A DNA stretch of 64,000 bases from a virus, in IMG/VR virus record IMGVR_UViG_3300042900_000549, positions 19,722 to 83,721 of that record; one strand, written 5' to 3'. Below, piece after piece: positions 20,880 to 52,322 of this stretch; positions within the stretch are counted from its first letter, which is position 1; every line of letters begins with the position of its first letter. Made by a program: the position numbers and the translations under genes. A model generated the notes under the pieces. It saw only the letters and a program-made list of their open reading frames with translations. It ran no database searches and was not told the origin of the DNA.

Positions 20880-20952
20880 GGGTCAATAACTCAGTTGGTA
20901 GAGTAGCGGGCTTTTAACCTGTAAGTCGTGAGTTCGAGTCTCACTTGACCCA
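20880..20952 (+). tRNA. tRNA-Lys(UUU)
   Basis: GGGTCAA/TTGACCC acceptor, CT-TTT-AA loop, TTCGAGT. Confidence 0.95.
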
Positions 20953-20953
20953 C

Positions 20954-20982
20954 TTGACAATTGGATCCAGAGATGGTATGAT
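20954..20982 (+). promoter_or_regulatory. sigma70-like promoter
   Basis: TTGACA-17 bp-TATGAT. Confidence 0.7.
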
Positions 20983-20990
20983 TGTCTTAT

Positions 20991-21063
20991 GGGCACGTAG
21001 CATAATGGATAATGCATCATCCTTCTAAGATGTCGATTGCTGGTTCGACCCCAGCCGTGCCTG
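20991..21063 (+). tRNA. tRNA-Arg(UCU)
   Basis: GGGCACG/CGTGCCT, CT-TCT-AA, TTCGACC. Confidence 0.93.
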
Positions 21064-21174
21064 TTGAAGTAGTCGTTATGCACATAGCATAGAAAGACGC
21101 TTCATATATAAAAGGATAGAGGTTAAGTCCCTGTTATATCCTTATGAGATATATCACACCTAATCCATCAAATC

Positions 21175-21262
21175 AAGAAAGTGCTGGGCAAACTTTGGAG
21201 GTTTTCTCCACTACCATTTGTGGGCTTCTGAGAACAGGAGAAATAAGGTTTGGTACTTTCTT
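21175..21262 (+). ncRNA. Candidate multibranch structured ncRNA
   Basis: 15-bp closing stem with G-U pairs and three internal hairpins. Confidence 0.5.
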
Positions 21263-21270
21263 CAAAACAC

Positions 21271-21299
21271 TTGACAATCTAAGATTTATGTCTTATGAT
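21271..21299 (+). promoter_or_regulatory. sigma70-like promoter
   Basis: TTGACA-17 bp-TATGAT. Confidence 0.7.
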
Positions 21300-21308
21300 T
21301 GTCTTATT

Positions 21309-21379
21309 GCGGGTATGGTGTAGTGGCAACACAAGAGTTTTCCAAACTTTTATCCTCGGTTCAAATCCGTGTACCCGCT
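21309..21379 (+). tRNA. tRNA-Gly(UCC)
   Basis: GCGGGTA/TACCCGC, TT-TCC-AA, TTCAAAT. Confidence 0.93.
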
Positions 21380-21398
21380 TGAACCATAAGGTTCCTAT

Positions 21399-21470
21399 TC
21401 CACAATAGTTCAGTGGTAGAACTCAAAACTGTTAATTTTGCTGTCCCTGGTTCGAATCCAGGTTGTGGAG
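21399..21470 (+). tRNA. tRNA-Asn(GUU)
   Basis: TCCACAA/TTGTGGA, CT-GTT-AA, TTCGAAT. Confidence 0.93.
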
Positions 21471-21502
21471 TTTATAAATACCCAAAGAAATATGAAAATA
21501 TT

Positions 21503-21763
21503 ATGGAAAACTTACGAATTAGATGTAAATCTTGTAATAGAGAACTGGAGGGTCACCCATCAAAAACAGTTTCTTGTGGATGTTCTAATATGGCAACTAT
21601 AGTAAACAATAATAAAATTACTGCACTTAATTTGTCTAATGTGGTGATGTTAAACTCTCCACATACAAAACAAACCAATAATGTCCTTACTAATGATGAT
21701 ATTATGTGGCAGGAAGCTCGAAGACAACGTAAAGTTCGCCGTTTAGACTTTGAGATTCGTTGA
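21503..21763 (+). CDS. Small zinc-binding hypothetical protein
   Basis: CKSC...CGC; late promoter TATAAATA at 21473. Confidence 0.7.
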   Translation: MENLRIRCKSCNRELEGHPSKTVSCGCSNMATIVNNNKITALNLSNVVMLNSPHTKQTNNVLTNDDIMWQEARRQRKVRRLDFEIR

Positions 21764-21774
21764 TGATTTTTATT

Positions 21775-21859
21775 GGAAAGGTGACCGAGCGGTTTATGGT
21801 GTTTGTCTTGAAAACAAAAGATGTGGAAGCATCCGGAGGTTCGAATCCTCTCCTTTCCG
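21775..21859 (+). tRNA. tRNA-Ser(UGA)
   Basis: GGAAAGG/CCTTTCC, CT-TGA-AA, long variable arm. Confidence 0.93.
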
Positions 21860-21964
21860 TTACATAAGATACTAAAACTCATTTAATATTATAATGTCAA
21901 CACATAATACTCATAGTTAGTATAATAATTATACTAAATTATTAGTATAAACGCACAAAACTCA

Positions 21965-22126
21965 ATGGACGATCACACTTACCAAAATTGGGTTAAGATC
22001 AAAGAAACTTTTGAATCATCCGGTAATACTAATAATATGTTTTACACAAGAGCGTGTGAAATAGTTAAAACTAAAAGAGATCCTATGGATAAATTTTGGA
22101 ATAAAAATAAACACTTGACAAATTAA
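21965..22126 (+). CDS. Small conserved cyanophage/cyanobacterial protein (53 aa)
   Basis: MDDHTYQNWVKIKETFESSGNTNNMFYTRACEIVKTKRDP; absent from the ORF track. Confidence 0.65.
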   Translation: MDDHTYQNWVKIKETFESSGNTNNMFYTRACEIVKTKRDPMDKFWNKNKHLTN

Positions 22127-22156
22127 AGTTTTACTGCTATTATACATAAAGAAATA

Positions 22157-22230
22157 CGGGCATTAGCGCAGTTTGGTAGCGCGTTCCGTTTGGGGCGGAA
22201 AAGTCAGAGGTTCAAATCCTCTATGCCCGA
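22157..22230 (+). tRNA. tRNA-Pro(UGG)
   Basis: CGGGCAT/ATGCCCG, TT-TGG-GG, TTCAAAT. Confidence 0.95.
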
Positions 22231-22286
22231 TTGCCAGAAATTAAACTGGCACACTCAAATTTAAAACTCTTATAAATTCTATTATA

Positions 22287-22481
22287 ATGTCTACAACAAT
22301 TGCTCGAGGAATGGAAAGTTTCACCGTAGAAGATTTTCAAAAACACTTTGATGAATTAATGGAACGAGTTGAGAATGGAGAGTCTTTTCTCATTACAAGC
22401 GAATATGGAAATGCAGTAATGATACCATATTGTGAATTTGACGAAGGTAGTTCTTTTTGTAATCACGACGATGGTTGCTGA
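22287..22481 (+). CDS. Phd/YefM-family antitoxin-like protein
   Basis: TVEDFQKHFDELMERVENGESFLIT..GNAVMIP matches the Phd N-terminal pattern. Confidence 0.7.
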   Translation: MSTTIARGMESFTVEDFQKHFDELMERVENGESFLITSEYGNAVMIPYCEFDEGSSFCNHDDGC

Positions 22482-22490
22482 TCCTTTTGT

Positions 22491-22564
22491 GGGAATGTAG
22501 CTCAATTGGTTAGAGCACAGACCTTATAAGTCTGAGGTTCTGGGTTCAATCCCCAGCGTTCCTA
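22491..22564 (+). tRNA. tRNA-Ile(UAU)
   Basis: GGGAATG/CGTTCCT, CT-TAT-AA loop, discriminator A. Confidence 0.88.
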
Positions 22565-22861: not shown

Positions 22862-23053
22862 AAGACACGGACGGTCTATAACAGCACTGGTCGGGAGCAA
22901 CCCCCTTTAGTCACGGAGAGACTCTAAAAGTACTGGTGGATCCAAAATGACCCCTCAATAGGTTTCCAATTTCCTTCAAAAATTGGTGGTGCGGATGGGA
23001 TCTTACTCCCGCCTGGTTTCCAATTTCCAGTTAAAGAATTGGTGGCGAGCCTG
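22862..23053 (+). ncRNA. wcaG-type RNA motif with four UGGY(G) units
   Basis: Pseudoknot-forming GGTTTCCAATTTCC...AATTGG-TGGYG repeats upstream of an NAD-dependent epimerase, the context described for the wcaG RNA. Confidence 0.7.
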
Positions 23054-23063
23054 GTAAAAACCT

Positions 23064-31493: not shown

Positions 31494-32271
31494 ATCATCA
31501 TATAAACTCAAAAACTTTGGTCCCATATATTACCTAAATCTGGACGGTCAACCGGAAAGAAAAGAGTATATGGAAGATCAATTTGAATATTGGGAAATTG
31601 AAAATTATACACGTATCTCTGCATATGATGGTCGTGAAGATGATCTAAGTGATATTCTTAAAGGTAAGTATCCAGATATGATGTCTTCAGGTGAGATTGG
31701 ATGCGTAACATCTCATCTTAAGGCAATCAGACACTGGATGGAAACCTCTGATAGTCCATATGCAGTTATTATGGAAGATGATTGTGATATAGGTGTTGCT
31801 AAGTACTGGAACTTTACCTGGCAAGATTTTATTGCTCGTGCTCCTTATGCTTGGGATGTAATTCAACTTGCAATTATTTGTACAGGAGATATTGTAGTTC
31901 CTGTTCATAATCGGTTTGTGAATGATTTTTCTACTGCGTGTTATGTAATTACTCGTCATCATGCTCAGAAATTAATTAATAATCACATCCGTGCTGATAA
32001 GTACAAACTTGATAATGGTGTAAAACCAAGAGCAGTTGCTGATGATTTAATTTATAATTCTGGATGTACTTATGCTACTCCTATGCTCTTATATAAAACA
32101 GATCTAGGATCCACTATACATCCAGAGCATGTGGATATTTTTCATAAGAATAGTTATAATGCAATATTAAATTTTTGGGAAACTCAAGGAAGTCAGTTGA
32201 CATTAGATCAAATTACGAGTTATGACCCTTATCTGGGTAGGATAACCGAACCTTCTCAAAAGTCCGCTTGA
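31480..32271 (+). CDS. Glycosyltransferase family 25
   Basis: YYLNLD..ER, GEIGCVTSHLKA, IMEDD. Confidence 0.85.
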   Translation: MDKNKSSYKLKNFGPIYYLNLDGQPERKEYMEDQFEYWEIENYTRISAYDGREDDLSDILKGKYPDMMSSGEIGCVTSHLKAIRHWMETSDSPYAVIMEDDCDIGVAKYWNFTWQDFIARAPYAWDVIQLAIICTGDIVVPVHNRFVNDFSTACYVITRHHAQKLINNHIRADKYKLDNGVKPRAVADDLIYNSGCTYATPMLLYKTDLGSTIHPEHVDIFHKNSYNAILNFWETQGSQLTLDQITSYDPYLGRITEPSQKSA

Positions 32272-32365
32272 CAAATTCAAAATTCTGGTCTATCATAAAT
32301 ATGTTCTTAGAATCCCTTGTTGGAATTCTTAACACTTGTCCTTTAGTATAAAAACAAAAAACTTT

Positions 32366-33892
32366 ATGAAAATCGAACAACTGATGCTTGCGCCCGTTGC
32401 TCTTGGTATGATTGCTCCCATTGCCGCAAATGCTGCAGAAATGAATCTTGTAGCAGTCAATCAATATGCCACCAGCGATCAGGTTACAAGTGTCACACAG
32501 TTCTCTGATGTTCGTCCAAGTGATTGGGCATATCAGGCACTTTCAAATCTTGTAGAACAATACGGTTGCGTTGCTGGTTATCCTAATGGCACCTTTAAAG
32601 GTGGTCAGGCAATGACCCGTTATGAGGCAGCAGCACTTCTGAATGCTTGCCTAGATCGTGTTACTGAAGTCACTGACGAACTCAAGAAACTTCTGAATGA
32701 ATTTCAGGGTGAACTTGCGATTCTTCGTGGTCGTGTAGATGGTCTAGAAGCAAAGGTGGGTGAACTGGAGGCAAATCAATTCTCTACCACCACCAAACTT
32801 CGTGGTGATACTCGTTGGGTTCTTGGCGGTATTTCCTACGGTGGAGACAGTAAGGACAACTACAAGAATCTTCGTGAATCTGTATCCTTTAATTATGATG
32901 TTCGTCTGAACTTTGATACTTCATTCACTGGTAAGGATCTACTTCGCACTCAACTTCGTGCTGGTAACTTTAGGGATAGTGCCTTTGGTGCCGCTCCTAC
33001 GCCTCTTACCAAACTAGATGCTGGATTTGAAGAGAACATCGGTAATGCTGATGGTGGTGATGTAGTTGCGATTAATCGTCTCTACTACAAGTTCCCTGTT
33101 GGCAAAGAGTTTACTGTTGTTGGTGGTCCAGTAGTTCGTCAGGATGATCTGCTTGCTGTGTGGCCTTCTGTATACACCTCTGATAAGATCCTGAAGGTCT
33201 TCCAGTTTGCCGGTGCTCCAGGTGCCTACAATCAGATCCTGGGTGGCGGTGCTGGTGCTTATTGGAAGAGGGGTGGTTGGTCTGTCGGTGCCGCTTATGT
33301 TGCCGGTAATGCTGACCAAGGTAATAGTGCAACTGGTGGTATTGCTAACGGGAACTCTGCTGCTTCTAGCACAGTTCAACTTGCATACACTGGAAAGAAC
33401 TGGAACCTGACTGGTGCTTACAACTACTCCAACTATGGTGTAAGTAATGCTGGTACTTCTTTTGAAACCAGTCTTCTTCCTAATGCAACTACTGGTGGTC
33501 AGACTAACTCTGTCTCTCTTGCTGGTTATTGGCAACCCATTAAGTCTGGATGGGCACCTTCTGTTTCCGCTGGTTGGGGTTACAATGCAATCGGTTATAA
33601 TGAAGGTGATGGTGTAACTTCTCAATCTTGGTACACTGGTCTGGTTTGGAAAGATGTGATTGCAAAGGGTAATGCTCTTGGTGTTGCAGTTGGTCAACCT
33701 ACCTTTGTTACTAATGTCGATAATGGAAACGCTAATGATGGTCAGTATGCTCTTGAGGCATACTACAAGATGCAGGTAACTGATAATATTTCAGTTACGC
33801 CAGCAATTTTCTATCTGTCTGCACCTCGTGGAGAGACTGATAAGAACCTGGATGCATTTGGTGCATTAGTGCAAACAACTTTCCGTTTTTGA
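32366..33892 (+). CDS. Cyanobacterial-type outer-membrane porin (SLH domain plus beta-barrel, Som/OprB family)
   Basis: QVTSVTQFSDVRPSDWAYQAL..YGCVAGYP SLH domain, FSTTTKL, TSFTGKDLL, C-terminal TTFRF. Confidence 0.93.
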   Translation: MKIEQLMLAPVALGMIAPIAANAAEMNLVAVNQYATSDQVTSVTQFSDVRPSDWAYQALSNLVEQYGCVAGYPNGTFKGGQAMTRYEAAALLNACLDRVTEVTDELKKLLNEFQGELAILRGRVDGLEAKVGELEANQFSTTTKLRGDTRWVLGGISYGGDSKDNYKNLRESVSFNYDVRLNFDTSFTGKDLLRTQLRAGNFRDSAFGAAPTPLTKLDAGFEENIGNADGGDVVAINRLYYKFPVGKEFTVVGGPVVRQDDLLAVWPSVYTSDKILKVFQFAGAPGAYNQILGGGAGAYWKRGGWSVGAAYVAGNADQGNSATGGIANGNSAASSTVQLAYTGKNWNLTGAYNYSNYGVSNAGTSFETSLLPNATTGGQTNSVSLAGYWQPIKSGWAPSVSAGWGYNAIGYNEGDGVTSQSWYTGLVWKDVIAKGNALGVAVGQPTFVTNVDNGNANDGQYALEAYYKMQVTDNISVTPAIFYLSAPRGETDKNLDAFGALVQTTFRF

Positions 33893-33895
33893 GGT

Positions 33896-33965
33896 TATAA
33901 ATAAAATCACCTGACTTGTTGGCGCTTTTCAGGTAAAGATTGGGGGGCAGTAATGCCCTCTTTTC
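33896..33965 (+). ncRNA. Candidate late small RNA: promoter, hairpin, terminator
   Basis: TATAAATA at 33896; ACCTGA-loop-TCAGGT; GGGGGCA-GTAA-TGCCCTC-TTTT terminator. Confidence 0.5.
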
Positions 33966-33968
33966 TTG

Positions 33969-33976
33969 TATAAATA
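33969..33976 (+). promoter_or_regulatory. T4-type late promoter for the endonuclease gene
   Basis: TATAAATA. Confidence 0.75.
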
Positions 33977-34003
33977 GTTTCGCCAACAAGTTAGAGAATA
34001 ACA

Positions 34004-34720
34004 ATGACTTCACAAAGTCCAAGAATTTACACATATAAAATCACATTTGAAGAAGTTCCTTATTATTACTATGGGGTTCATAAGGAACAAGGATTTGATG
34101 AAGAGTATTGGGGAACTCCCGTAACAAACCGCTGGTGTTGGGAATTTTATACTCCAGAGAAACAAATATTGGAACTATTTGAATATAGTGATGAAGGTTG
34201 GATAGAAGCGCAAGAAGTTGAAAAAAGAATAATTAAACCAATCCTTAATAATAAATGGTGCCTTAATGAAAATTGTAAAGGGATAATTTCTATAGAAGGA
34301 TGTAAAAAAGGTGGGAGGATTATGGGAAACTATCTTTATAAAAATGGATTAGGTATTCACGCATTAACAAAAGAACAGCAGATTGAAAATGGAAAGAAGG
34401 GAAATAAGGAGGGTAAAAGAAGAAGTGGAAAAAATGCATATCTTATGAAAACTGGAATTCACGCTTTTACTGCCGAAGAAAAAAAAGAACTTGGAAGAAA
34501 GAGTGGTCGTATTAATTTTGAGATGGGACTTGGAATTCATTCTTTAACCCCAGAGCAAAGAGTTGAAAATGGAAAAAAGGGTGGAAAAATTGCAGGAAGA
34601 ATAGTTTCCTCTCAAAGATGGAGATGTTTAGTGACCGGATATATTGCTGCCGCTGGTCCGCTAGCATCTTATCAAAAAGCAAGAGGTATTGATAAGAGTT
34701 TAAGAGAAAGATTGTCTTAA
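34004..34720 (+). CDS. Free-standing GIY-YIG-like homing endonuclease with C-terminal GIH repeats
   Basis: IYTYKIT..YYYYG, YWGT, CLN; three GIH(A/S)(L/F)T.E....GKKG repeats. Confidence 0.7.
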   Translation: MTSQSPRIYTYKITFEEVPYYYYGVHKEQGFDEEYWGTPVTNRWCWEFYTPEKQILELFEYSDEGWIEAQEVEKRIIKPILNNKWCLNENCKGIISIEGCKKGGRIMGNYLYKNGLGIHALTKEQQIENGKKGNKEGKRRSGKNAYLMKTGIHAFTAEEKKELGRKSGRINFEMGLGIHSLTPEQRVENGKKGGKIAGRIVSSQRWRCLVTGYIAAAGPLASYQKARGIDKSLRERLS

Positions 34721-34760
34721 CCAAATCTTAGTTGACTCCAAACTTTATTTGCGATAGACT
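34716..34760 (+). promoter_or_regulatory. Pho box-like tandem repeat overlapping the pstS promoter
   Basis: CTTAACC and CTTAGTT at 11-bp spacing, then TTGACT-17-TAGACT. Confidence 0.55.
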
Positions 34761-34794: not shown

Positions 34795-35763
34795 ATGAAA
34801 ATTAAAAATCTATTTGCTATTGGTCTAATTGTTGCTACCCCGGTTGCGGCAATTGCGGGGACTACTCTAAACGGTGCGGGAGCCTCCTTTCCATTTTCCA
34901 TCTACAGTAGATGGTTTAATGATTATGCACGAACTTCTGGGAATAGGGTTAATTATCAGTCCGTTGGTTCTGGTGCTGGTGTTCGTCAATTCATTGCGGG
35001 AACTGTTGATTTCGCAGCATCCGACGAACCAATCAAATCCTCCGAAGCCGCCAAAGTAAAGCGTGGAGTTGTTCAAATTCCAATGGTTGGAGGTACGATT
35101 GCAATTGCTTACAATAAACCCGGTTGTACTCTTAAACTGACTCAACAACAAACCGTAGATGTATTTCTCAGTAAGATTAATGACTGGAAGCAACTCAAGT
35201 GTGCTCCCGGTAAAATCACTACAGTTCATCGTTCTGATGGTTCCGGCACTACATTCGCCTTCACTAACTCCCTAGAAGCATTCTCATCCTCTTGGACCCC
35301 AGGTGTAGGCAAGAGTGTTAAATGGCCTGTAGGGGTTGGAGGAAAGGGTAATGAGGGTGTTTCGGGTATCATCAAGAATACTCCTGGTTCTCTTGGTTAT
35401 GTCTCTTATTCCTTTGTGAAGTCTCAAAATCTTCAAGTAGCGCAACTTCAAAATAAATCTGGAAAGTTTGTTCCTCCAAATGCATCAAGTGGTTCTGCTG
35501 CTCTAAATCAAATTAAACTGGATTCAAATCTTGCTGGAGAAAATCCAAACCCATCAGGTGTGAATTCTTATCCAATTTCAACCCTAACTTGGGTTCTTGC
35601 TTATAAGAATGGGAATGGTGCAAAGACTGATGAAATTCGTGGAGTTCTGAACTATGCTTTGGGTTCTAAAGCACAAATGATTGCTGATGATTTGGGTTAT
35701 GTTCCTTTGAGTGGTAGTGTTCTGAATAAGGCACGACTTGCAGTGAATCGTATCAGCAAGTGA
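34795..35763 (+). CDS. pstS: Phosphate ABC transporter substrate-binding protein
   Basis: GAGASFP, YQSVGSGAG, DFAASD, RSDGSGTT, YPI. Confidence 0.96.
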   Translation: MKIKNLFAIGLIVATPVAAIAGTTLNGAGASFPFSIYSRWFNDYARTSGNRVNYQSVGSGAGVRQFIAGTVDFAASDEPIKSSEAAKVKRGVVQIPMVGGTIAIAYNKPGCTLKLTQQQTVDVFLSKINDWKQLKCAPGKITTVHRSDGSGTTFAFTNSLEAFSSSWTPGVGKSVKWPVGVGGKGNEGVSGIIKNTPGSLGYVSYSFVKSQNLQVAQLQNKSGKFVPPNASSGSAALNQIKLDSNLAGENPNPSGVNSYPISTLTWVLAYKNGNGAKTDEIRGVLNYALGSKAQMIADDLGYVPLSGSVLNKARLAVNRISK

Positions 35764-38639: not shown

Positions 38640-38757
38640 TCACATTGCTCCCGTGCTTACCGAGACTTTGCACGATAAATACGTCTCTCATATCTTCTCT
38701 AGGGGTGAGAAGAAATACTGATCCTATTCGTCTCCCTACGAATTATTACTTAACCCT
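38640..38757 (+). ncRNA. PhotoRC-II-like psbA leader RNA
   Basis: ACCGAGAC...GTCTCTCATATC...AGGGGTG...TCCCT blocks directly upstream of phage psbA. Confidence 0.7.
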
Positions 38758-38766
38758 TTTTTACAA

Positions 38767-39777
38767 ATGACTGCTACAATTGCTACACGCTCTAATACTA
38801 ATCTATGGAATGATTTCTGTTCCTGGATTACTTCAACGAATAACAGGTTATATGTTGGGTGGTTCGGAGTCCTTATGATTCCCTGCCTTCTCGCAGCGAC
38901 TACTTGCTTCATTATTGCTTTTATTGGTGCTCCCCCTGTTGATATTGATGGGATCAGAGAACCAGTTGCTGGGTCTCTTATGTACGGAAACAACATCATC
39001 TCTGGTGCCGTTGTTCCTTCTTCTAATGCTATCGGACTTCACTTTTATCCTATCTGGGAAGCAGCAAGTCTTGATGAATGGCTCTATAATGGTGGTCCTT
39101 TTCAACTTGTTGTATTTCACTTCCTCATCGGCATTTATGCTTATATGGGTCGTGAATGGGAACTCTCCTATCGTCTAGGAATGCGTCCCTGGATTATGGT
39201 TGCTTACAGTGCTCCTGTTGCTGCTGCTACTGCCGTATTCCTAGTCTATCCCTTTGGTCAAGGTTCTTTCTCTGATGCTATGCCTCTTGGAATTTCTGGA
39301 ACCTTTAATTATATGCTTGTCTTCCAGGCAGAACATAACATCCTTATGCACCCCTTTCACATGTTAGGCGTCGCAGGTGTCTTCGGCGGATCACTTTTTA
39401 GCGCCATGCACGGTTCACTGGTGACTTCTTCACTGGTTCGTGAGACTACTGAAACTGAATCCCAAAACTACGGATATAAGTTCGGTCAAGAAGAAGAGAC
39501 TTACAACATTGTTGCTGCACACGGTTACTTCGGTCGTCTTATTTTCCAATATGCGTCTTTCAATAACTCACGCAGTCTCCACTTCTTTCTGGCTGCCTGG
39601 CCAGTAGTTGGTATTTGGTTTACTGCTCTTGGCGTAAGCACAATGGCATTTAATCTGAACGGTTTTAATTTTAACCAGTCCATCGTTGATAGTCAAAACC
39701 GAGTAGTTCCTACTTGGGCGGACATTTTAACACGAGCAGGATTGGGTATGGAAGTGATGCACGAAAGGAACGCACAT
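38767..39777 (+). CDS. psbA: Photosystem II D1 protein, exon 1
   Basis: D1 sequence up to [10 protein letters not shown]; the frame is interrupted by an intron. Confidence 0.97.
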
Positions 39778-40017
39778 TAGTAAAATAGTGTCCTTACTGA
39801 GAAATTGGTAAGTGTAAATCGGATGAATTGCTGGAAACCCTCCAAATATAAGGGCAATCAGCATCCAAGTCTCAGATACATCTGAGAAAGGTTCAACGAC
39901 TACCTGAGGGATATAGTTCCCTTAATAACAGGCAAGAGCGTCCGACACCTAAGTTCTAATAGAATACGGTGATGATATAGTCTTCTCCATAAGAATGGTA
40001 AACTTATGGGTCCAGAG
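39778..40017 (+). mobile_element. Group I intron (240 nt, no ORF) in psbA
   Basis: Exon ends in U that pairs with G in P1; P AATTGCTGGAAA, Q AATCAGCA, R TCAACGACTA, S GATATAGTC; terminal G; splicing restores NAH-NFPLDLA. Confidence 0.93.
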
Positions 40018-40114: not shown

Positions 40115-40149
40115 GAGGAACTCTTCGGGGTTCCTTTTTTGTATAAATA
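40115..40149 (+). terminator. psbA terminator followed by a late promoter
   Basis: AGGAACTC-TTCG-GGGTTCCT plus T run; TATAAATA at 40142. Confidence 0.8.
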
Positions 40150-40178
40150 ACTATAGCACTAACTTTGGATTAGAAGTA

Positions 40179-40913
40179 ATGAAAAATGTATTTTACACTT
40201 ATGCTTATTTGAGGGAGGATGGAACTCCTTATTATATTGGTAAGGGTAAAGGTAAAAGAGCATATGATAGAAAAAGGCATAGTGCTTATGTCCCATCAAG
40301 AAATAGGATTTTAATATTAAAGAAAAATCTTACTGAAGATGAAGCATTTATTCACGAAATTTATATGATTTCAATCTTTGGTAGAAAAGATTTGGAAACT
40401 GGTATTCTTTATAATCTAACAGATGGTGGAGATGGACCTTCTGGATATGTTTATACAGAAGAACAAAGGAAAAAAATGGGAGATATGCGTAGAGGAAAGA
40501 AGAGACCAAGACAAAGTAAGATTATGAAGGAAAAAAATCATTTACAAATAGTGAATGAAAATAAAATAAACGAATTGAGAAAAAATTGTCCACCAGAAAA
40601 AATTGCTGAACTTTATATTGAGGGTAAAACTCTTAGAGAAATAAAATCAATTTTGGGATGTGGGATGGTTTGGATTAGAAAATCATTGGATGAAATGGAA
40701 GTTAAAATAAGACATAGAAACGACTATGGAAATCCTATGAACGACAAAGAAGTTAGAGATAAAATTTCTCAAAAAGCAATAGAAAGAGGTGCTTGGTCTG
40801 GGGATAAAAATCCAAATTCAGGGGAAGGTATTTGTAGGGATAAAATAATACAAAGAACAAAAGAAGTAAATACTGGAAAACAAAATTGGAAGTATAGGAA
40901 ACCTAAAAACTAA
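40179..40913 (+). CDS. Free-standing GIY-YIG homing endonuclease with NUMOD3-like and HTH regions
   Basis: [40 protein letters not shown]. Confidence 0.82.
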
Positions 40914-50881: not shown

Positions 50882-51652
50882 ATGACAAGAAGAAAAAGAA
50901 CCAATCAAGATACTCAGTCTGTTGGCGGTGTTCCTATGACTACGAAACATATGAAGCGTAGAAAACCATTAAACTCTGATTTACTTTTAGATGTTCAACC
51001 TCTAACAGATAATCAAGGAAAACTATTTGAATCCTATGATGAAGGTAAGCACATTGTTGCTTATGGAGCAGCTGGAACTGGTAAAACTTTTATCGTTCTC
51101 TACAATGCACTCAAAGATGTTCTTAATGATAGGACACCTTATGATAAAATATACATCATTAGGTCTTTAGTGCAGACTCGCGAAATTGGATTCTTGCCAG
51201 GTAATCACGAAGATAAATCAGCACTCTTTGAAATACCATATAAAAATATGGTAAAATATATGTTCCAACTGCCGTCTGAAGATGAGTTTGAGATGCTATA
51301 CGGCAATCTTAAATCTCAAGGTACTATTTCTTTTTGGTCTTCTTCTTTCTTAAGAGGAACTACTTTTGATAATTGCATTCTTATTGTGGACGAATTCCAA
51401 AATATGAATGGACACGAAAATGATTCTATCATCACTCGTGTTGGCGAAAACTGTAAAATTATGTTCTGTGGTGATGCTTCGCAGAGTGATTTAGTGCGAC
51501 AGAATGAGAGAAATGGAATTCACGATTTTATAAAAATTCTTCAAATTATGCCATCATTTGATTTTATTGAATTTGGTATTGAAGACGTATGCAGAAGTGG
51601 ATTGGTTAAAGAGTACTTAATTGCAAAACATTCCTTAAATATTACCATATAA
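50882..51652 (+). CDS. phoH: PhoH-family ATPase
   Basis: GAAGTGKT, IGFLPG, RGTT, DEFQN, GDASQSD. Confidence 0.95.
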   Translation: MTRRKRTNQDTQSVGGVPMTTKHMKRRKPLNSDLLLDVQPLTDNQGKLFESYDEGKHIVAYGAAGTGKTFIVLYNALKDVLNDRTPYDKIYIIRSLVQTREIGFLPGNHEDKSALFEIPYKNMVKYMFQLPSEDEFEMLYGNLKSQGTISFWSSSFLRGTTFDNCILIVDEFQNMNGHENDSIITRVGENCKIMFCGDASQSDLVRQNERNGIHDFIKILQIMPSFDFIEFGIEDVCRSGLVKEYLIAKHSLNITI

Positions 51653-51653
51653 A

Positions 51654-52322
51654 ATGTTCACACATATTGATTTGAATCTCCCAAAACTTACGAGGGAGAG
51701 TATAGATGGAGTTCGTTATTATAACATTGGTGAAGAAAATAAAAAACTGGTGTCTATTACCTCCGTTATTAGTCATTATAGTAAAGCAAAGTTTGCAAAA
51801 TGGCGTAAAAGAGTTGGAGAAGAAGAAGCAAATAGAATCACAAAAAGAGCAACCAGTCGTGGTACTGATACTCATACTCTCATTGAGAGTTATTTGCTAA
51901 ACGAAGAACTCTCAGAGGTTCAACCAATTTCAGAAATGTTATTTAAATTGGCGAAACCAACTCTAAATCGTATAAATAATATTTACTGTCTAGAAAGTTC
52001 TTTACACAGTAAAATTTTGGGAGTTGCAGGTTCTGTCGATACTATAGGAGAATTTGATGGTGAACTTGCAGTTATTGATTATAAGACTTCCGCAAAACCA
52101 AAGCCCCGTGAATGGTTAGAAGGATATTTTGTTCAAACTATGTTTTATGGAATGGCTTTATATGAGATGACGGATATTCAGATTAAAAAGTTAGTTATTA
52201 TAATGACCTGTGAGAATGGAGAATGTGTTGTTTACGAAGAAAGAGATTTAGAAAAATATATGAAACTCGTTATTCAGTATATCAAAAAATTTGTAAACGA
52301 TAAGTTAGAACAAATTGCTTGA
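51654..52322 (+). CDS. PD-(D/E)XK (Cas4-like) exonuclease
   Basis: SITSV, RGT..H, AGSVD, IDYKTS, Q...Y. Confidence 0.85.
   Translation: MFTHIDLNLPKLTRESIDGVRYYNIGEENKKLVSITSVISHYSKAKFAKWRKRVGEEEANRITKRATSRGTDTHTLIESYLLNEELSEVQPISEMLFKLAKPTLNRINNIYCLESSLHSKILGVAGSVDTIGEFDGELAVIDYKTSAKPKPREWLEGYFVQTMFYGMALYEMTDIQIKKLVIIMTCENGECVVYEERDLEKYMKLVIQYIKKFVNDKLEQIA

Follow-up and report, generated by a model that had tools for sequence, protein, structure and literature searches.

A control cassette that recurs ahead of homing-endonuclease genes was identified in 62 distinct cassettes of the same architecture from IMG/VR contigs and the cultured freshwater cyanophages S-SRM01 and B3; the roughly 110 bases ahead of a lake cyanophage endonuclease gene are one copy of it. 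The order of parts is a late box (P1), a 5' stem-loop (SL1) with arm 1, an intrinsic terminator, a second late box (P2), arm 2 and the ATG. This architecture is portable across nuclease families, and pairing of the two arms is under selection in plus-sense RNA. The cassette is very probably a real, selected RNA-pairing control module. It is best read as a portable unit for free-standing homing-endonuclease genes of freshwater T4-like cyanophages, with the known T4-type mask and its nested late promoter as the core. The conserved P1, 5' stem-loop and terminator suggest an additional small RNA (sRNA) of about 50-60 nt. We lean narrowly towards the full dual reading, a portable pairing module that limits nuclease dose and also releases this sRNA.

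Organisation of the cassette in the window

The window is the whole stretch of 64,000 nucleotides that was analysed. The cassette and its neighbouring genes are composed of the following features.

32268..32296, plus strand: sigma-70-type (early-like) promoter of the porin-like gene, TTGACA-17-TATCAT, 11/12, consensus match only
32336..33892, plus strand: porin-like gene with SLH and OprB domains (Pfam OprB 7e-21, SLH 3e-9)
33896..33903, plus strand: P1, first late-promoter-type box TATAAATA (direct reading; a promoter by sequence only)
33909..33934, plus strand: SL1, 6-bp stem (33909-33914 with 33929-33934) and 14-nt loop (folding, repeat search)
33911..33924, plus strand: arm 1, CTGACTTGTTGGCG, the 5' stem strand of SL1 plus the 5' half of its loop (repeat search; covaries with arm 2)
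33909..33968, plus strand: predicted P1 transcript of about 60 nt, the candidate sRNA (ends inferred from the T4 box-to-start rule and the fold)
33942..33968, plus strand: intrinsic terminator, stem-loop 33942-33961 followed by a T-rich tail (folding, terminator scan)
33969..33976, plus strand: P2, second late-promoter-type box TATAAATA, between both arms (direct reading; assigned as for P1)
33981..33994, plus strand: arm 2, CGCCAACAAGTTAG, at the predicted 5' end of the endonuclease mRNA (direct reading, repeat search)
34004..34720, plus strand: homing-endonuclease-type gene, 238 aa (domains and fold, described below)
34732..34760, plus strand: sigma-70-type promoter of pstS, TTGACT-17-TAGACT, 9/12 matches

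Direct reading gave ACCTGA (33909-33914) and TCAGGT (33929-33934) as the strands of the SL1 stem, which begins at the predicted +1 of P1. The terminator scan found eight pairs, five of them G-C, and a loop of four in the terminator, followed by TTTCTTGTAT. The arms (14 nt, 56 nt between them) were found by repeat search to be 93% complementary, and their sole non-Watson-Crick position is one G-U pair. Arm 2 starts 4 nt past the P2 box and stops 9 nt short of the ATG (34004), P2 lies 27 nt from the ATG, matching the other boxes of the window, and the free leader between arm 2 and the ATG, AGAATAACA, is without a clear Shine-Dalgarno sequence. The initial annotation had described both boxes, at 33896 and 33969, a terminator between them, the ACCTGA/TCAGGT hairpin and the complementarity of 33911-33924 to 33981-33994 with one G-U pair; direct reading, terminator scan, folding and repeat search recovered each of these, with the box coordinates exact. 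It had also placed the target at the predicted 5' end of the P2 endonuclease mRNA, next to the ribosome-binding site; the first part holds, but neither a clear Shine-Dalgarno sequence nor the AUG falls within the pairing.

Folding of the 61-nt segment 33908-33968 resulted in two hairpins at -25.0 kcal/mol (z = -3.8), and the read-through form 33908-34020, in which the two arms pair and enclose the terminator, reached -43.8 kcal/mol (z = -5.4); for each, 0 of 200 shuffles were as good. A script that required a pair of TAAATA boxes spaced by 45-120 nt, with complementary runs of 10 nt or more behind each box, found the cassette site to be unique in the 64-kb window. At the second GIY-YIG gene of the window (box at 40142) a terminator accompanies the late box, and no complementary arms were found there. 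No Rfam family reached its gathering score in the cassette region; at E <= 10 only chance-level rows appeared, the best in 33800-34100 being an unrelated family at E = 0.68, and the C4 antisense RNA model gave no match at the cassette region.

The stop codon of the porin-like ORF lies at 33890-33892. The promoter at 32268..32296 would be a source of transcripts entering the cassette, and the porin-like transcript would end at the cassette terminator with the stem-loop in its 3' end. Relatives show empty sites after the porin gene: in 14 of 18, a terminator and then an hli-type gene come after the porin stop and the endonuclease is absent, and one relative carries a cassette plus endonuclease at the same place. 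The host-like gene beyond the insertion, pstS (identified via Pfam PBP_like_2, 6e-38), has its own predicted promoter. A check of the sequencing runs that contain the locus showed no RNA run among them. Contigs of run X20, guessed to be RNA, cover only 33458-33762 and 35229-35264, which are pieces of the porin-like gene and pstS and not the cassette, and speak neither for nor against a transcript there.

Identity of the nuclease

The 238-aa product contains an N-terminal GIY-YIG-like domain, three GIH-type repeats and a conserved C-terminal module. By its predicted fold it looks like a Seg-type GIY-YIG homing endonuclease, in agreement with the GIY-YIG assignment of the initial annotation. A Foldseek search of BFVD with the AlphaFold model (pLDDT 82.7) gave 53 matches at E <= 0.001, most of which are Seg-like or GIY-YIG homing endonucleases, and the protein atlas placed the product nearest to GIY-YIG clusters (0.95). 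Foldseek against the PDB returned nothing at E <= 0.001, its top match being the I-TevI catalytic domain, a weak match at E = 1.1. The window protein has no Pfam or PHROG match, a Pfam scan of the 26 members of alignment A2 gave chance-level rows only (GIY-YIG in 1/26, at E = 0.95), and a profile search of PDB sequences with the endonuclease family gave 0 matches. Tyr, Gly, Glu73 and Asn88 are invariant in alignment A2 and may be the equivalents of I-TevI residues.

Conservation of the architecture in 62 cassettes

Analysis of the 62 cassettes, each about 100-130 nt in length, revealed N[A/C]TAAATA at the place of P1 in all 62, a count to be read with the bias of model-based collection towards box-carrying matches; the P1 box is also kept in 13/13 cassettes collected with a box-free pattern. 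The boxes were assigned to the late-promoter type after the available text of PMC2984593 and PMC2988020. The full TATAAATA occurs at P1 in just 15/62 cassettes, against 46/62 for P2, and the P2 variant ACTAAATA is present in 11/62. In phage Aeh1 the (A/G)C variant is already documented as a form of the late box (PMC2988020). Frequently P1 overlaps the upstream gene's stop codon or lies directly next to it, for example at several S-SRM01 sites. P2 sits between the arms in 62/62 cassettes, and arm 2 starts 4-5 nt past the P2 box in 53/62. The spacing between each box and its arm is constant, which places the predicted 5' ends of the late transcripts at the foot of SL1 and at arm 2; these starts follow the T4 box-to-start rule (PMC2988020) rather than starts mapped in cyanophages. 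The predicted P1 transcripts have a median length of 51 nt (range 39-69).

For nearly all of the 49 cassettes folded, the predicted minimum-energy structure has one hairpin at the 5' end and a second one formed by the terminator. In A3, a MAFFT alignment of a 17-sequence subfamily, the six pairs of SL1 are 92% paired and seven pairs of the terminator are 95% paired, and the pairing of SL1 is kept with different letters across subfamilies. The conservation of SL1 rests on RNAfold structures, a longest-stem script being noisy and sometimes choosing alternative stems. P1, the arm-displaying stem-loop and the terminator are each conserved and keep a constant spacing, also in the loci found box-free.

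A full cassette was present at 26 of the 36 homologous loci with the N-terminus present; L006 is cut by the contig end, and nine loci are without the cassette or aberrant. L005 is without P1 and has decayed arms with a 6-nt run, L028 and L029 have the terminator only, L030 is without an ATG at the expected place, L032 has a degenerate P1 and a broken frame, and L033 and L035-L037 are GC-richer, with a short local hairpin ahead of the ATG. L026 and L027, identical to L025, were removed before counting.

Pairing ends 4-16 nt ahead of the ATG in the 62 cassettes and covers neither the AUG nor a clear Shine-Dalgarno sequence. The position of arm 2 at the extreme 5' end of the predicted mRNA, with the 4-16 nt before the ATG free, would suit a protective pairing, in which either the RNA itself or the 3'-terminal part of the upstream mRNA shields the 5' end of the endonuclease mRNA from RNase E/J decay and raises expression. 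We regard such protection as improbable, since in 19/62 cassettes the helix ends merely 4-6 nt from the ATG, within the space of the ribosome, since a stabiliser would need no allele-specific arms, and since the precedents for endonuclease leaders in the T4 family, in the available part of PMC2988022, are all repressive.

Covariation and strand sense of the pairing

Among the 62 cassettes 49 distinct arm-1 runs were found; the arms vary yet remain complementary. The uninterrupted complementary run has a mean of 13.0 nt (range 8-18) and reaches at least 10 nt in 55/62 cassettes, and the mean energy of the arm 1:arm 2 duplex is -23.7 kcal/mol. Comparison of cognate with non-cognate arms revealed mean duplex energies of -23.6 kcal/mol against -10.2 +/- 3.6, mean runs of 12.7 nt against 6.3 +/- 1.4 and, after the cost of opening SL1, net intermolecular energies of -14.2 kcal/mol on average against -3.9. 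A plain MAFFT alignment of the 27 first cassettes (A1) brought just five inner pairs into register, and for this reason an ungapped anchored script analysis and A3 were used. In A3 the 15 arm pairs are 95.6% paired, compared with 37-46% when the partner is slid, and a covariation score as high was reached by 0/500 shuffles. The covariation between loop and leader in homologs that the initial annotation had called for is present: pairing is conserved, and 8/15 arm pairs show double changes.

Complementarity arising by chance in AT-rich intergenic DNA has nothing in its favour beyond the general frequency of short inverted repeats, and its probability is negligible. The site is the sole one of its kind in the 64-kb window, and compensatory change is conserved across the 62 cassettes. 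Chance is refuted by the cognate and non-cognate energies and runs, by the covariation in A3 and by the 62 cassettes.

The pairing runs contain 756 Watson-Crick and 49 G-U pairs, and the single internal mismatches include no A-C, which points to pairing in RNA of the plus strand. This strand-specific pairing bears on a DNA-level explanation, in which the inverted repeat works as DNA, for instance as a cruciform, as a boundary for recombination or homing, or as an operator bound by protein. The arms do flank a promoter as an inverted repeat, the cassettes move from gene to gene, and I-TevI binds an operator over its own late promoter according to the available part of PMC2988022. A DNA-level role is nevertheless highly improbable: besides the strand-specificity, the arms are hypervariable while the proteins are conserved, which argues against a common protein operator, and the repeat always lies in the transcribed orientation, between promoter box and ATG.

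Cassettes within one genome are mostly orthogonal (-22.5 against -9.6 kcal/mol). This orthogonality is not strict, as one cassette pair cross-pairs at -20.2 kcal/mol. In close pairs the identity of the arms is 0.39 compared with 0.65 at four-fold sites, a difference that is suggestive only, being based on few sites and non-independent pairs.

Occurrence ahead of different endonuclease families

The ORFs downstream of cassettes belong to at least five homing-endonuclease types, comprising both GIY-YIG variants and HNH types. S-SRM01 has six cassettes and B3 three, ahead of GIY-YIG, NUMOD3 and HNH genes, and an identical arm allele was found ahead of different ORF types. The initial annotation had overlooked this portability, with the module heading several unrelated endonuclease families. 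Two CDS starts of S-SRM01 appear to be placed inside the cassette.

Proposed mechanism

The terminator would halt transcripts arriving from upstream, in the window the early-type porin transcript. A read-through transcript would carry both arms and fold into a long helix of 12-18 bp, which would lock the leader and keep the nuclease untranslated. Only the short P2 transcript, without arm 1, would be translatable, which is the logic of T4 I-TevI and segB and of mobE. P1 would fire late, and the terminator would release a stable candidate RNA of about 50-60 nt. The loop and 5' stem strand of this candidate sRNA could base-pair to the 12-16 nt that open the P2 mRNA, which is made about 70 bp away, and this pairing would lower translation or trigger decay in an allele-specific manner, thereby capping the nuclease dose. 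Because the helix covers neither the AUG nor a clear Shine-Dalgarno sequence, we only infer the sign of the effect.

That each cassette encodes a true late trans-acting sRNA, with its own promoter and terminator, targeting the 5' end of its own endonuclease mRNA through an allele-specific 'address' of 5-6 variable base pairs, is a tentative proposal drawn from the conserved sequence features, and one we hold with slightly more doubt than belief. P1 has the full consensus less often than P2 and may be a weak or inactive promoter, and its overlap with the upstream stop codon could mean that part of the conservation of the box has another cause. The candidate sRNA and its target would come from the same promoter type at the same time, which gives no obvious regulatory logic beyond damping.

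A cis reading, also offered in the initial annotation, explains the arms equally well and has the T4 precedent (PMC2988022, available part); the wording 'RNA antitoxin' used there should be taken as an analogy. On a purely cis account the cassette would be an elaborated T4-type translational mask whose arms pair only on read-through transcripts, with P1 inactive or incidental (an AT-rich stop region or a promoter remnant) and SL1 merely parking arm 1. Such masks are documented, in the accessible text of PMC2988022, for I-TevI, I-TevII, I-TevIII, segB and Aeh1 mobE. The invariable place of P2 between the arms, the very stable read-through fold, the early-type promoter upstream in the window, the more frequent straying of P1 from the consensus and its overlap with stop codons in S-SRM01 are all consistent with this account. 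We nonetheless consider it rather unlikely as the whole explanation. It leaves unexplained why TAAATA never changes and keeps its distance to SL1 while the bases around it differ, also in box-free loci; the 3' strand of SL1 would be useless, yet it is kept complementary with different letters across subfamilies; and a good terminator inside the mask leaves few read-through transcripts to mask. Upstream transcription, uninterrupted in the T4 mask, is here interrupted by the terminator between the arms, so that the mask could arise on read-through transcripts alone.

Homing endonucleases are selfish genes that need to be tolerated by the phage, and limitation of their dose is central to persistence. 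The T4 solution is a leader hairpin bypassed by a late promoter, and the cassette appears to be a standardised, movable version of it in freshwater cyanophages, common to GIY-YIG and HNH nucleases and equipped with an internal terminator, one further promoter and dozens of orthogonal pairing alleles. If the upstream half is released as RNA, T4-like phages would gain their first dedicated class of sRNA, together with a natural set of orthogonal sRNA/leader pairs and an annotation mark for endonuclease genes and, because of the two S-SRM01 starts that appear to lie inside the cassette, for true start codons. If this sRNA acts in trans, it would be the first trans-acting regulatory class in these phages, a portable RNA leash travelling with unrelated selfish nucleases, akin to the c4 RNA of phages P1/P7 or a type I antitoxin, and the fast divergence of the arms would be the outcome of selection that keeps the several cassettes of one genome orthogonal.

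Comparison with known systems

A literature search found no published description of the cassette; the 10,006 candidate structured RNAs from IMG/VR tabulated in the supplement to PMC10690425 lay outside this search and may include the motif. CfrI of cyanophage S-PM2 is described in the available text of PMC2984593 as an antisense RNA of about 225 nt on the opposite strand, across an endonuclease gene and psbA. CfrI and the candidate RNA of the cassette would be alike as non-coding RNAs of cyanomyoviruses tied to a homing-endonuclease gene, but CfrI, unlike the candidate sRNA, is a true antisense transcript from the opposite strand. A search of the S-PM2 genome with cassette model R1 gave 0 matches.

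PeSL elements, reportedly described by Arbiol and co-workers in 2010, are said to be mobile promoter/stem-loop cassettes of the hyperplastic regions of T4-type phages. In both cases short units of promoter and stem-loop move and shuffle with small genes in T4-type genomes. PeSL, unlike the cassette, has early promoters and no reported complementary leader arm.

The sRNAs of type I toxin-antitoxin systems (IstR-1 at the tisB standby site, OrzO/zorO) pair with the toxin 5' UTR away from the ribosome-binding site. The cassette would share with them a short RNA beside a harmful gene and an allele-specific leader pairing of 15-20 nt upstream of the ribosome-binding site. It differs in its target, a lytic phage's DNA endonuclease and not a small membrane toxin, and in that sRNA and mRNA are in tandem on one strand with a shared promoter type and no evident addiction logic.

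For the c4 RNA, Citron and Schuster are said to have shown in 1990 pairing of loops with the ribosome-binding site and specificity alleles in P1/P7. As in c4, the regulatory RNA would lie on the same strand directly upstream of its target, a structured RNA would show the complementary bases, and covarying alleles would give specificity. As described in the available text of PMC8198154, c4 is the antisense RNA of the immI operon c4-icd-ant of phages P1/P7. It is released by cutting of the operon transcript, acts on the antirepressor of a temperate phage and belongs to the Rfam family C4, whereas the cassette RNA would start at its own late promoter and end at a terminator.

The masks of the T-even phages and Aeh1 (I-TevI, I-TevII, I-TevIII, segB, mobE) contain a nested late promoter, according to the accessible part of PMC2988022. 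That source describes three features that the cassette shares: a leader helix that forms only on transcripts started upstream, a late promoter inside the structure that gives a short transcript without the 5' arm, and the purpose of keeping a selfish nuclease low and late. Unlike these masks, the cassette has its 5' arm in a stem-loop of its own behind its own conserved late box, an intrinsic terminator inside the mask and a long-range helix that encloses 56-80 nt. What it pairs is the predicted 5' terminus of the late mRNA and not the Shine-Dalgarno sequence and AUG, and the whole cassette is portable across nuclease families with many arm alleles.

Genomic setting and organization of the cassette

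The parent record of the window is an 83.7-kb IMG/VR virus with a CheckV completeness of 43%. Nearly all window genes lie on one strand, GC content ranges from 27 to 42%, and the public runs containing this DNA are lake-water metagenomes. Cyanomyovirus hallmarks found in the window include psbA with a group I intron, PhotoRC-II and wcaG RNAs, a tRNA array, pstS and hli. The features are listed below.

20880-22564, seven tRNAs (Rfam, gathering score)
22958-23056, wcaG RNA (Rfam, gathering score, 97 bits)
32268-32296, early-type sigma-70 promoter, upstream of the porin-like gene
32336-33892, porin-like gene (SLH/OprB), 518 aa
Between the porin-like gene and the 34004 ORF, cassette region, 111 nt
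34004-34720, ORF of 238 aa (window protein)
34732-34760, sigma-70-type promoter, followed by pstS
38640-38726, PhotoRC-II RNA (Rfam, gathering score)
39768-40001, group I intron (Rfam, gathering score)

Direct reading of the cassette region agreed with the initial annotation in its two TATAAATA boxes (P1, 33896-33903; P2, 33969-33976), its ACCTGA/TCAGGT stem (within stem-loop SL1), its terminator (33942-33961 plus a T-tail) and the 14-nt complementarity, with one G-U pair, of 33911-33924 (arm 1) to 33981-33994 (arm 2). The short form (33908-33968) folds into two hairpins at -25.0 kcal/mol (z = -3.8), and the read-through form, with the terminator enclosed by the paired arms, reaches -43.8 kcal/mol (z = -5.4). 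No Rfam family matches the region, and a geometry script run over the 64-kb window found no second instance of the layout.

The porin-like SLH and OprB gene (32336-33892) is phage-borne, with 18 relatives in IMG/VR contigs (L110-L127; 54-80% identity). The DNA 3' of it varies among these relatives, being hli alone, a small ORF with pstS, or an endonuclease.

Distribution of cassettes across genes and genomes

A blastn match to the cultured freshwater cyanophage S-SRM01 begins directly past the terminator. The upstream DNA of S-SRM01 and of a second cultured cyanophage, B3, has the same layout, with arms that are wholly different yet complementary. An IMG/VR scan guided by the window protein gave 61 loci, 36 of them with the N-terminus; among these 36, the full cassette is present in 26, cut by the contig end in one, and aberrant or absent in nine. 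A covariance model (R1) was built from the arms and terminator of 17 cassettes aligned with plain MAFFT (alignment A3). R1 matched six full-length cassettes in S-SRM01, three in B3, one in the window's record and none in S-PM2; one 49.6-kb contig has four gene copies and three R1 cassettes, the fourth being cut by the contig end.

Of the genes headed by the six S-SRM01 cassettes, just one encodes a homologue of the window protein. The annotations of the remaining five are HNH restriction endonuclease, NUMOD3 protein (twice, once with a DUF1825 family gene and the ssDNA-binding-protein gene on either side), 'hypothetical protein' (its N-terminus is of HNH type) and IF2 (its beginning is GIY-YIG-like). 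The annotated starts of QPX48040.1 and QPX48262.1 in S-SRM01 (MW015081.1; loci L092 and L094, near 51291-51992 and 192466-193167) fall within cassettes, 54-57 nt 5' of the ATG that follows arm 2, and these annotated N-termini are probably too long.

Across the collected loci R1 gave 59 matches at E <= 0.1. A second scan of the collection, with a pattern of the SL1 3' strand and terminator 5' strand only, gave 12 stretches. R1 was then run on these, minus L129 and L135 (in a contig already analysed), plus 14 porin-gene loci; 13 of the 16 matches were new cassettes, all 13 with both boxes, complementary arms and an endonuclease-type ORF. The distinct cassettes total 62.

N-terminal types of the ORFs downstream of the 62 cassettes
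Window type: 36
YTYAYLR-type GIY-YIG: 11
Two HNH types (phrog_655, 'homing endonuclease'): 7
YYSYEE type (phrog_314, 'homing endonuclease'; L039 counted here by motif): 5
Endonuclease-VII/HNH-like: 1
Canonical Pfam GIY-YIG: 1
Repeat and C-terminal module only: 1

The last of these, L040 (1279-1911), has a full cassette (9-nt run, -20.1 kcal/mol) heading a 177-aa ORF of GIH-type repeats and the C-terminal module, in which no nuclease domain was recognised and no endonuclease match was found in Pfam or PHROG.

Three arm alleles each precede differing ORF types; therefore cassette and coding region recombine. In 14 of the 18 porin-gene relatives the site is empty, the porin stop being followed by a terminator, a sigma-70-type promoter and an hli-type gene, and in a more distant relative (L121) a cassette with other arms and a window-type endonuclease lie directly past the porin stop. 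Thus the cassette, including P1, is part of the inserted unit. A second GIY-YIG-type endonuclease gene follows psbA in the window (40117-40913), with a terminator and a TATAAATA box (40142) and without complementary arms; R1 matches its terminator and P2 part only (E = 0.18). One genome therefore carries endonuclease genes with and without the cassette.

Conservation and covariation of the arms

Comparison of 27 non-identical cassettes gave a mean duplex energy of -23.6 kcal/mol for cognate arms (-27.1 to -20.6) and of -10.2 +/- 3.6 for non-cognate ones; the longest unbroken runs average 12.7 nt and 6.3 +/- 1.4 nt, respectively. Covariation between loop and leader among homologues, proposed as a check at the outset, was found in A3: the 15 arm pairs are 95.6% paired, falling to 37-46% when the 3' partner is shifted by 1-3 columns, and eight pairs show double-sided change, one of them as GC 6, UA 6 and CG 5. 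Variability is concentrated in five or six central pairs, and the inner GCA/UGC is almost invariant. None of 500 shuffles matched the covariation score, and complementarity arising by chance has a negligible probability.

A role of the arms at the DNA level is very improbable. The arm runs of the 62 cassettes contain 756 Watson-Crick and 49 G-U pairs, with single internal mismatches of G-A (five) and C-U (one) and none of A-C; the G-U pairs and the lack of A-C mismatches therefore indicate selection on the + sense strand as RNA and not on duplex DNA. Arm identity was 0.39 against 0.65 at four-fold degenerate sites in the neighbouring coding sequence by a crude measure over 71 close pairs, and this faster divergence fits selection for distinct addresses. 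Our analysis shows that the cassette is a portable module and that selection maintains RNA pairing between its upstream arm and the 5' end of the late leader of the endonuclease gene.

In L005 (1402-1503) P1 is missing and a 6-nt run (-14.1 kcal/mol) is all that is left of the arm complementarity, with SL1, terminator and P2 intact; its sequence suggests a recombinant left half, because its arm 2 equals that of S-SRM01. GC-richer endonuclease relatives (L033, L035-L037) are without the two-box cassette and have a short local hairpin right before the ATG (GGCGAC/GTCGCC or GGCGGTT/AACCGCC).

A probable endonuclease as the gene product

No match to the window protein was found in Pfam or PHROGs. 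A structure model from 26 homologues (pLDDT 82.7) had 53 matches among BFVD proteins (E <= 0.001), most of them to Seg-like or GIY-YIG homing endonucleases; its top PDB match, a weak one (E = 1.1), is the I-TevI catalytic domain, and in the protein atlas residues 1-100 are nearest GIY-YIG clusters. Members of the family share a conserved N-terminal domain (about 100 aa), in which Tyr, Gly, Glu73 and Asn88 are invariant. They also have GIH-type repeats, each about 30 aa long and varying in number, and a conserved C-terminal module that also occurs in proteins with other nuclease heads. The window protein is a probable GIY-YIG-type homing endonuclease. Its C-terminal module, which cyanophage homing endonucleases may have in common for DNA binding, is all that it shares with an ORF in the psbA region of S-PM2 (L073, 137505-137732; about 42-50% identity over about 90 aa).

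Late boxes and the putative small RNA

The late promoters of T4 are 8-bp boxes spanning -13 to -6, roughly a helical turn ahead of the start, and those of phage Aeh1 have (A/G)C at -13/-12 where T4 has TA (PMC2988020); the cyanomyovirus late-box consensus is NATAAATA (PMC2984593). P2 is TATAAATA in 46 and ACTAAATA in 11 of the 62 cassettes and sits 22-30 nt 5' of the ATG, matching other boxes of the window. In 53 of 62, arm 2 starts 4-5 nt past this box, where transcription is predicted to begin. All 62 cassettes have N[A/C]TAAATA as P1 (NATAAATA in 43, NCTAAATA in 19), with variable flanks of two bases before and six after.

With its start set by the T4 rule at the sixth base past the box, the predicted P1 transcript begins at the base of SL1 and has a median length of 51 nt (range 39-69); its computed fold in almost every one of 49 cassettes is a hairpin at the 5' end followed by the terminator. 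SL1 retains pairing with letters that differ by subfamily (CCUGA/UCAGG, GUCUGU/ACGGAC, GCUCU/AGAGC, CCUUAA/UUAAGG). Net of SL1 opening, intermolecular pairing remains favourable and specific, at -14.2 +/- 2.9 kcal/mol for cognate and -3.9 +/- 3.2 for non-cognate partners. Within one genome, cassettes show mostly orthogonal pairing, with -22.5 kcal/mol for cognate partners (n = 25), -9.6 for non-cognate ones (n = 58) and -20.2 for the worst cross-pair. Taken together, the internal terminator, separate 5' stem-loop and conserved first late box carry all the hallmarks by which a small RNA gene is recognised in sequence.

We infer that pairing of the arms is repressive. In T-even phages (PMC2988022), a hairpin stops translation of transcripts from upstream promoters, and a nested late promoter yields a translatable short mRNA. 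The core logic here would be a mask of that type, and the early-type porin transcript would be the obvious read-through source in the window. A protective, positive role of the same pairing is improbable. We lean slightly towards a dual reading, in which the arms form a cis mask on read-through transcripts and a released putative sRNA acts on transcripts that start from P2, some 70 bp away. A mask acting in cis only is possible, if rather unlikely. Several points count against the sRNA: no such RNA was seen, the one public run that may be RNA covering porin-gene and pstS pieces and not the cassette, P1 is less consensus-like than P2 and frequently adjoins or overlaps the stop codon of the upstream gene, the predicted transcript starts rest on T4 rules, and a regulator and target co-expressed from like promoters would give damping only.

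Relation to known systems

Our literature search found no published description of the cassette, and the supplementary lists of PMC10690425 may include it. Among the nearest systems are T4-type masks and c4, an antisense RNA of phages P1 and P7 that is encoded on the same strand as its target. The likeness to c4 is one of analogy and not of membership. The cassette would work like the T4-type masks; however, uninterrupted upstream transcription, one of the features that define these, is not a property of the cassette. Its arm helix ends 4-16 nt before the ATG, with no clear Shine-Dalgarno sequence to cover, and its internal terminator, separate 5' stem-loop and conserved first late box set it apart from the T4-type precedent.
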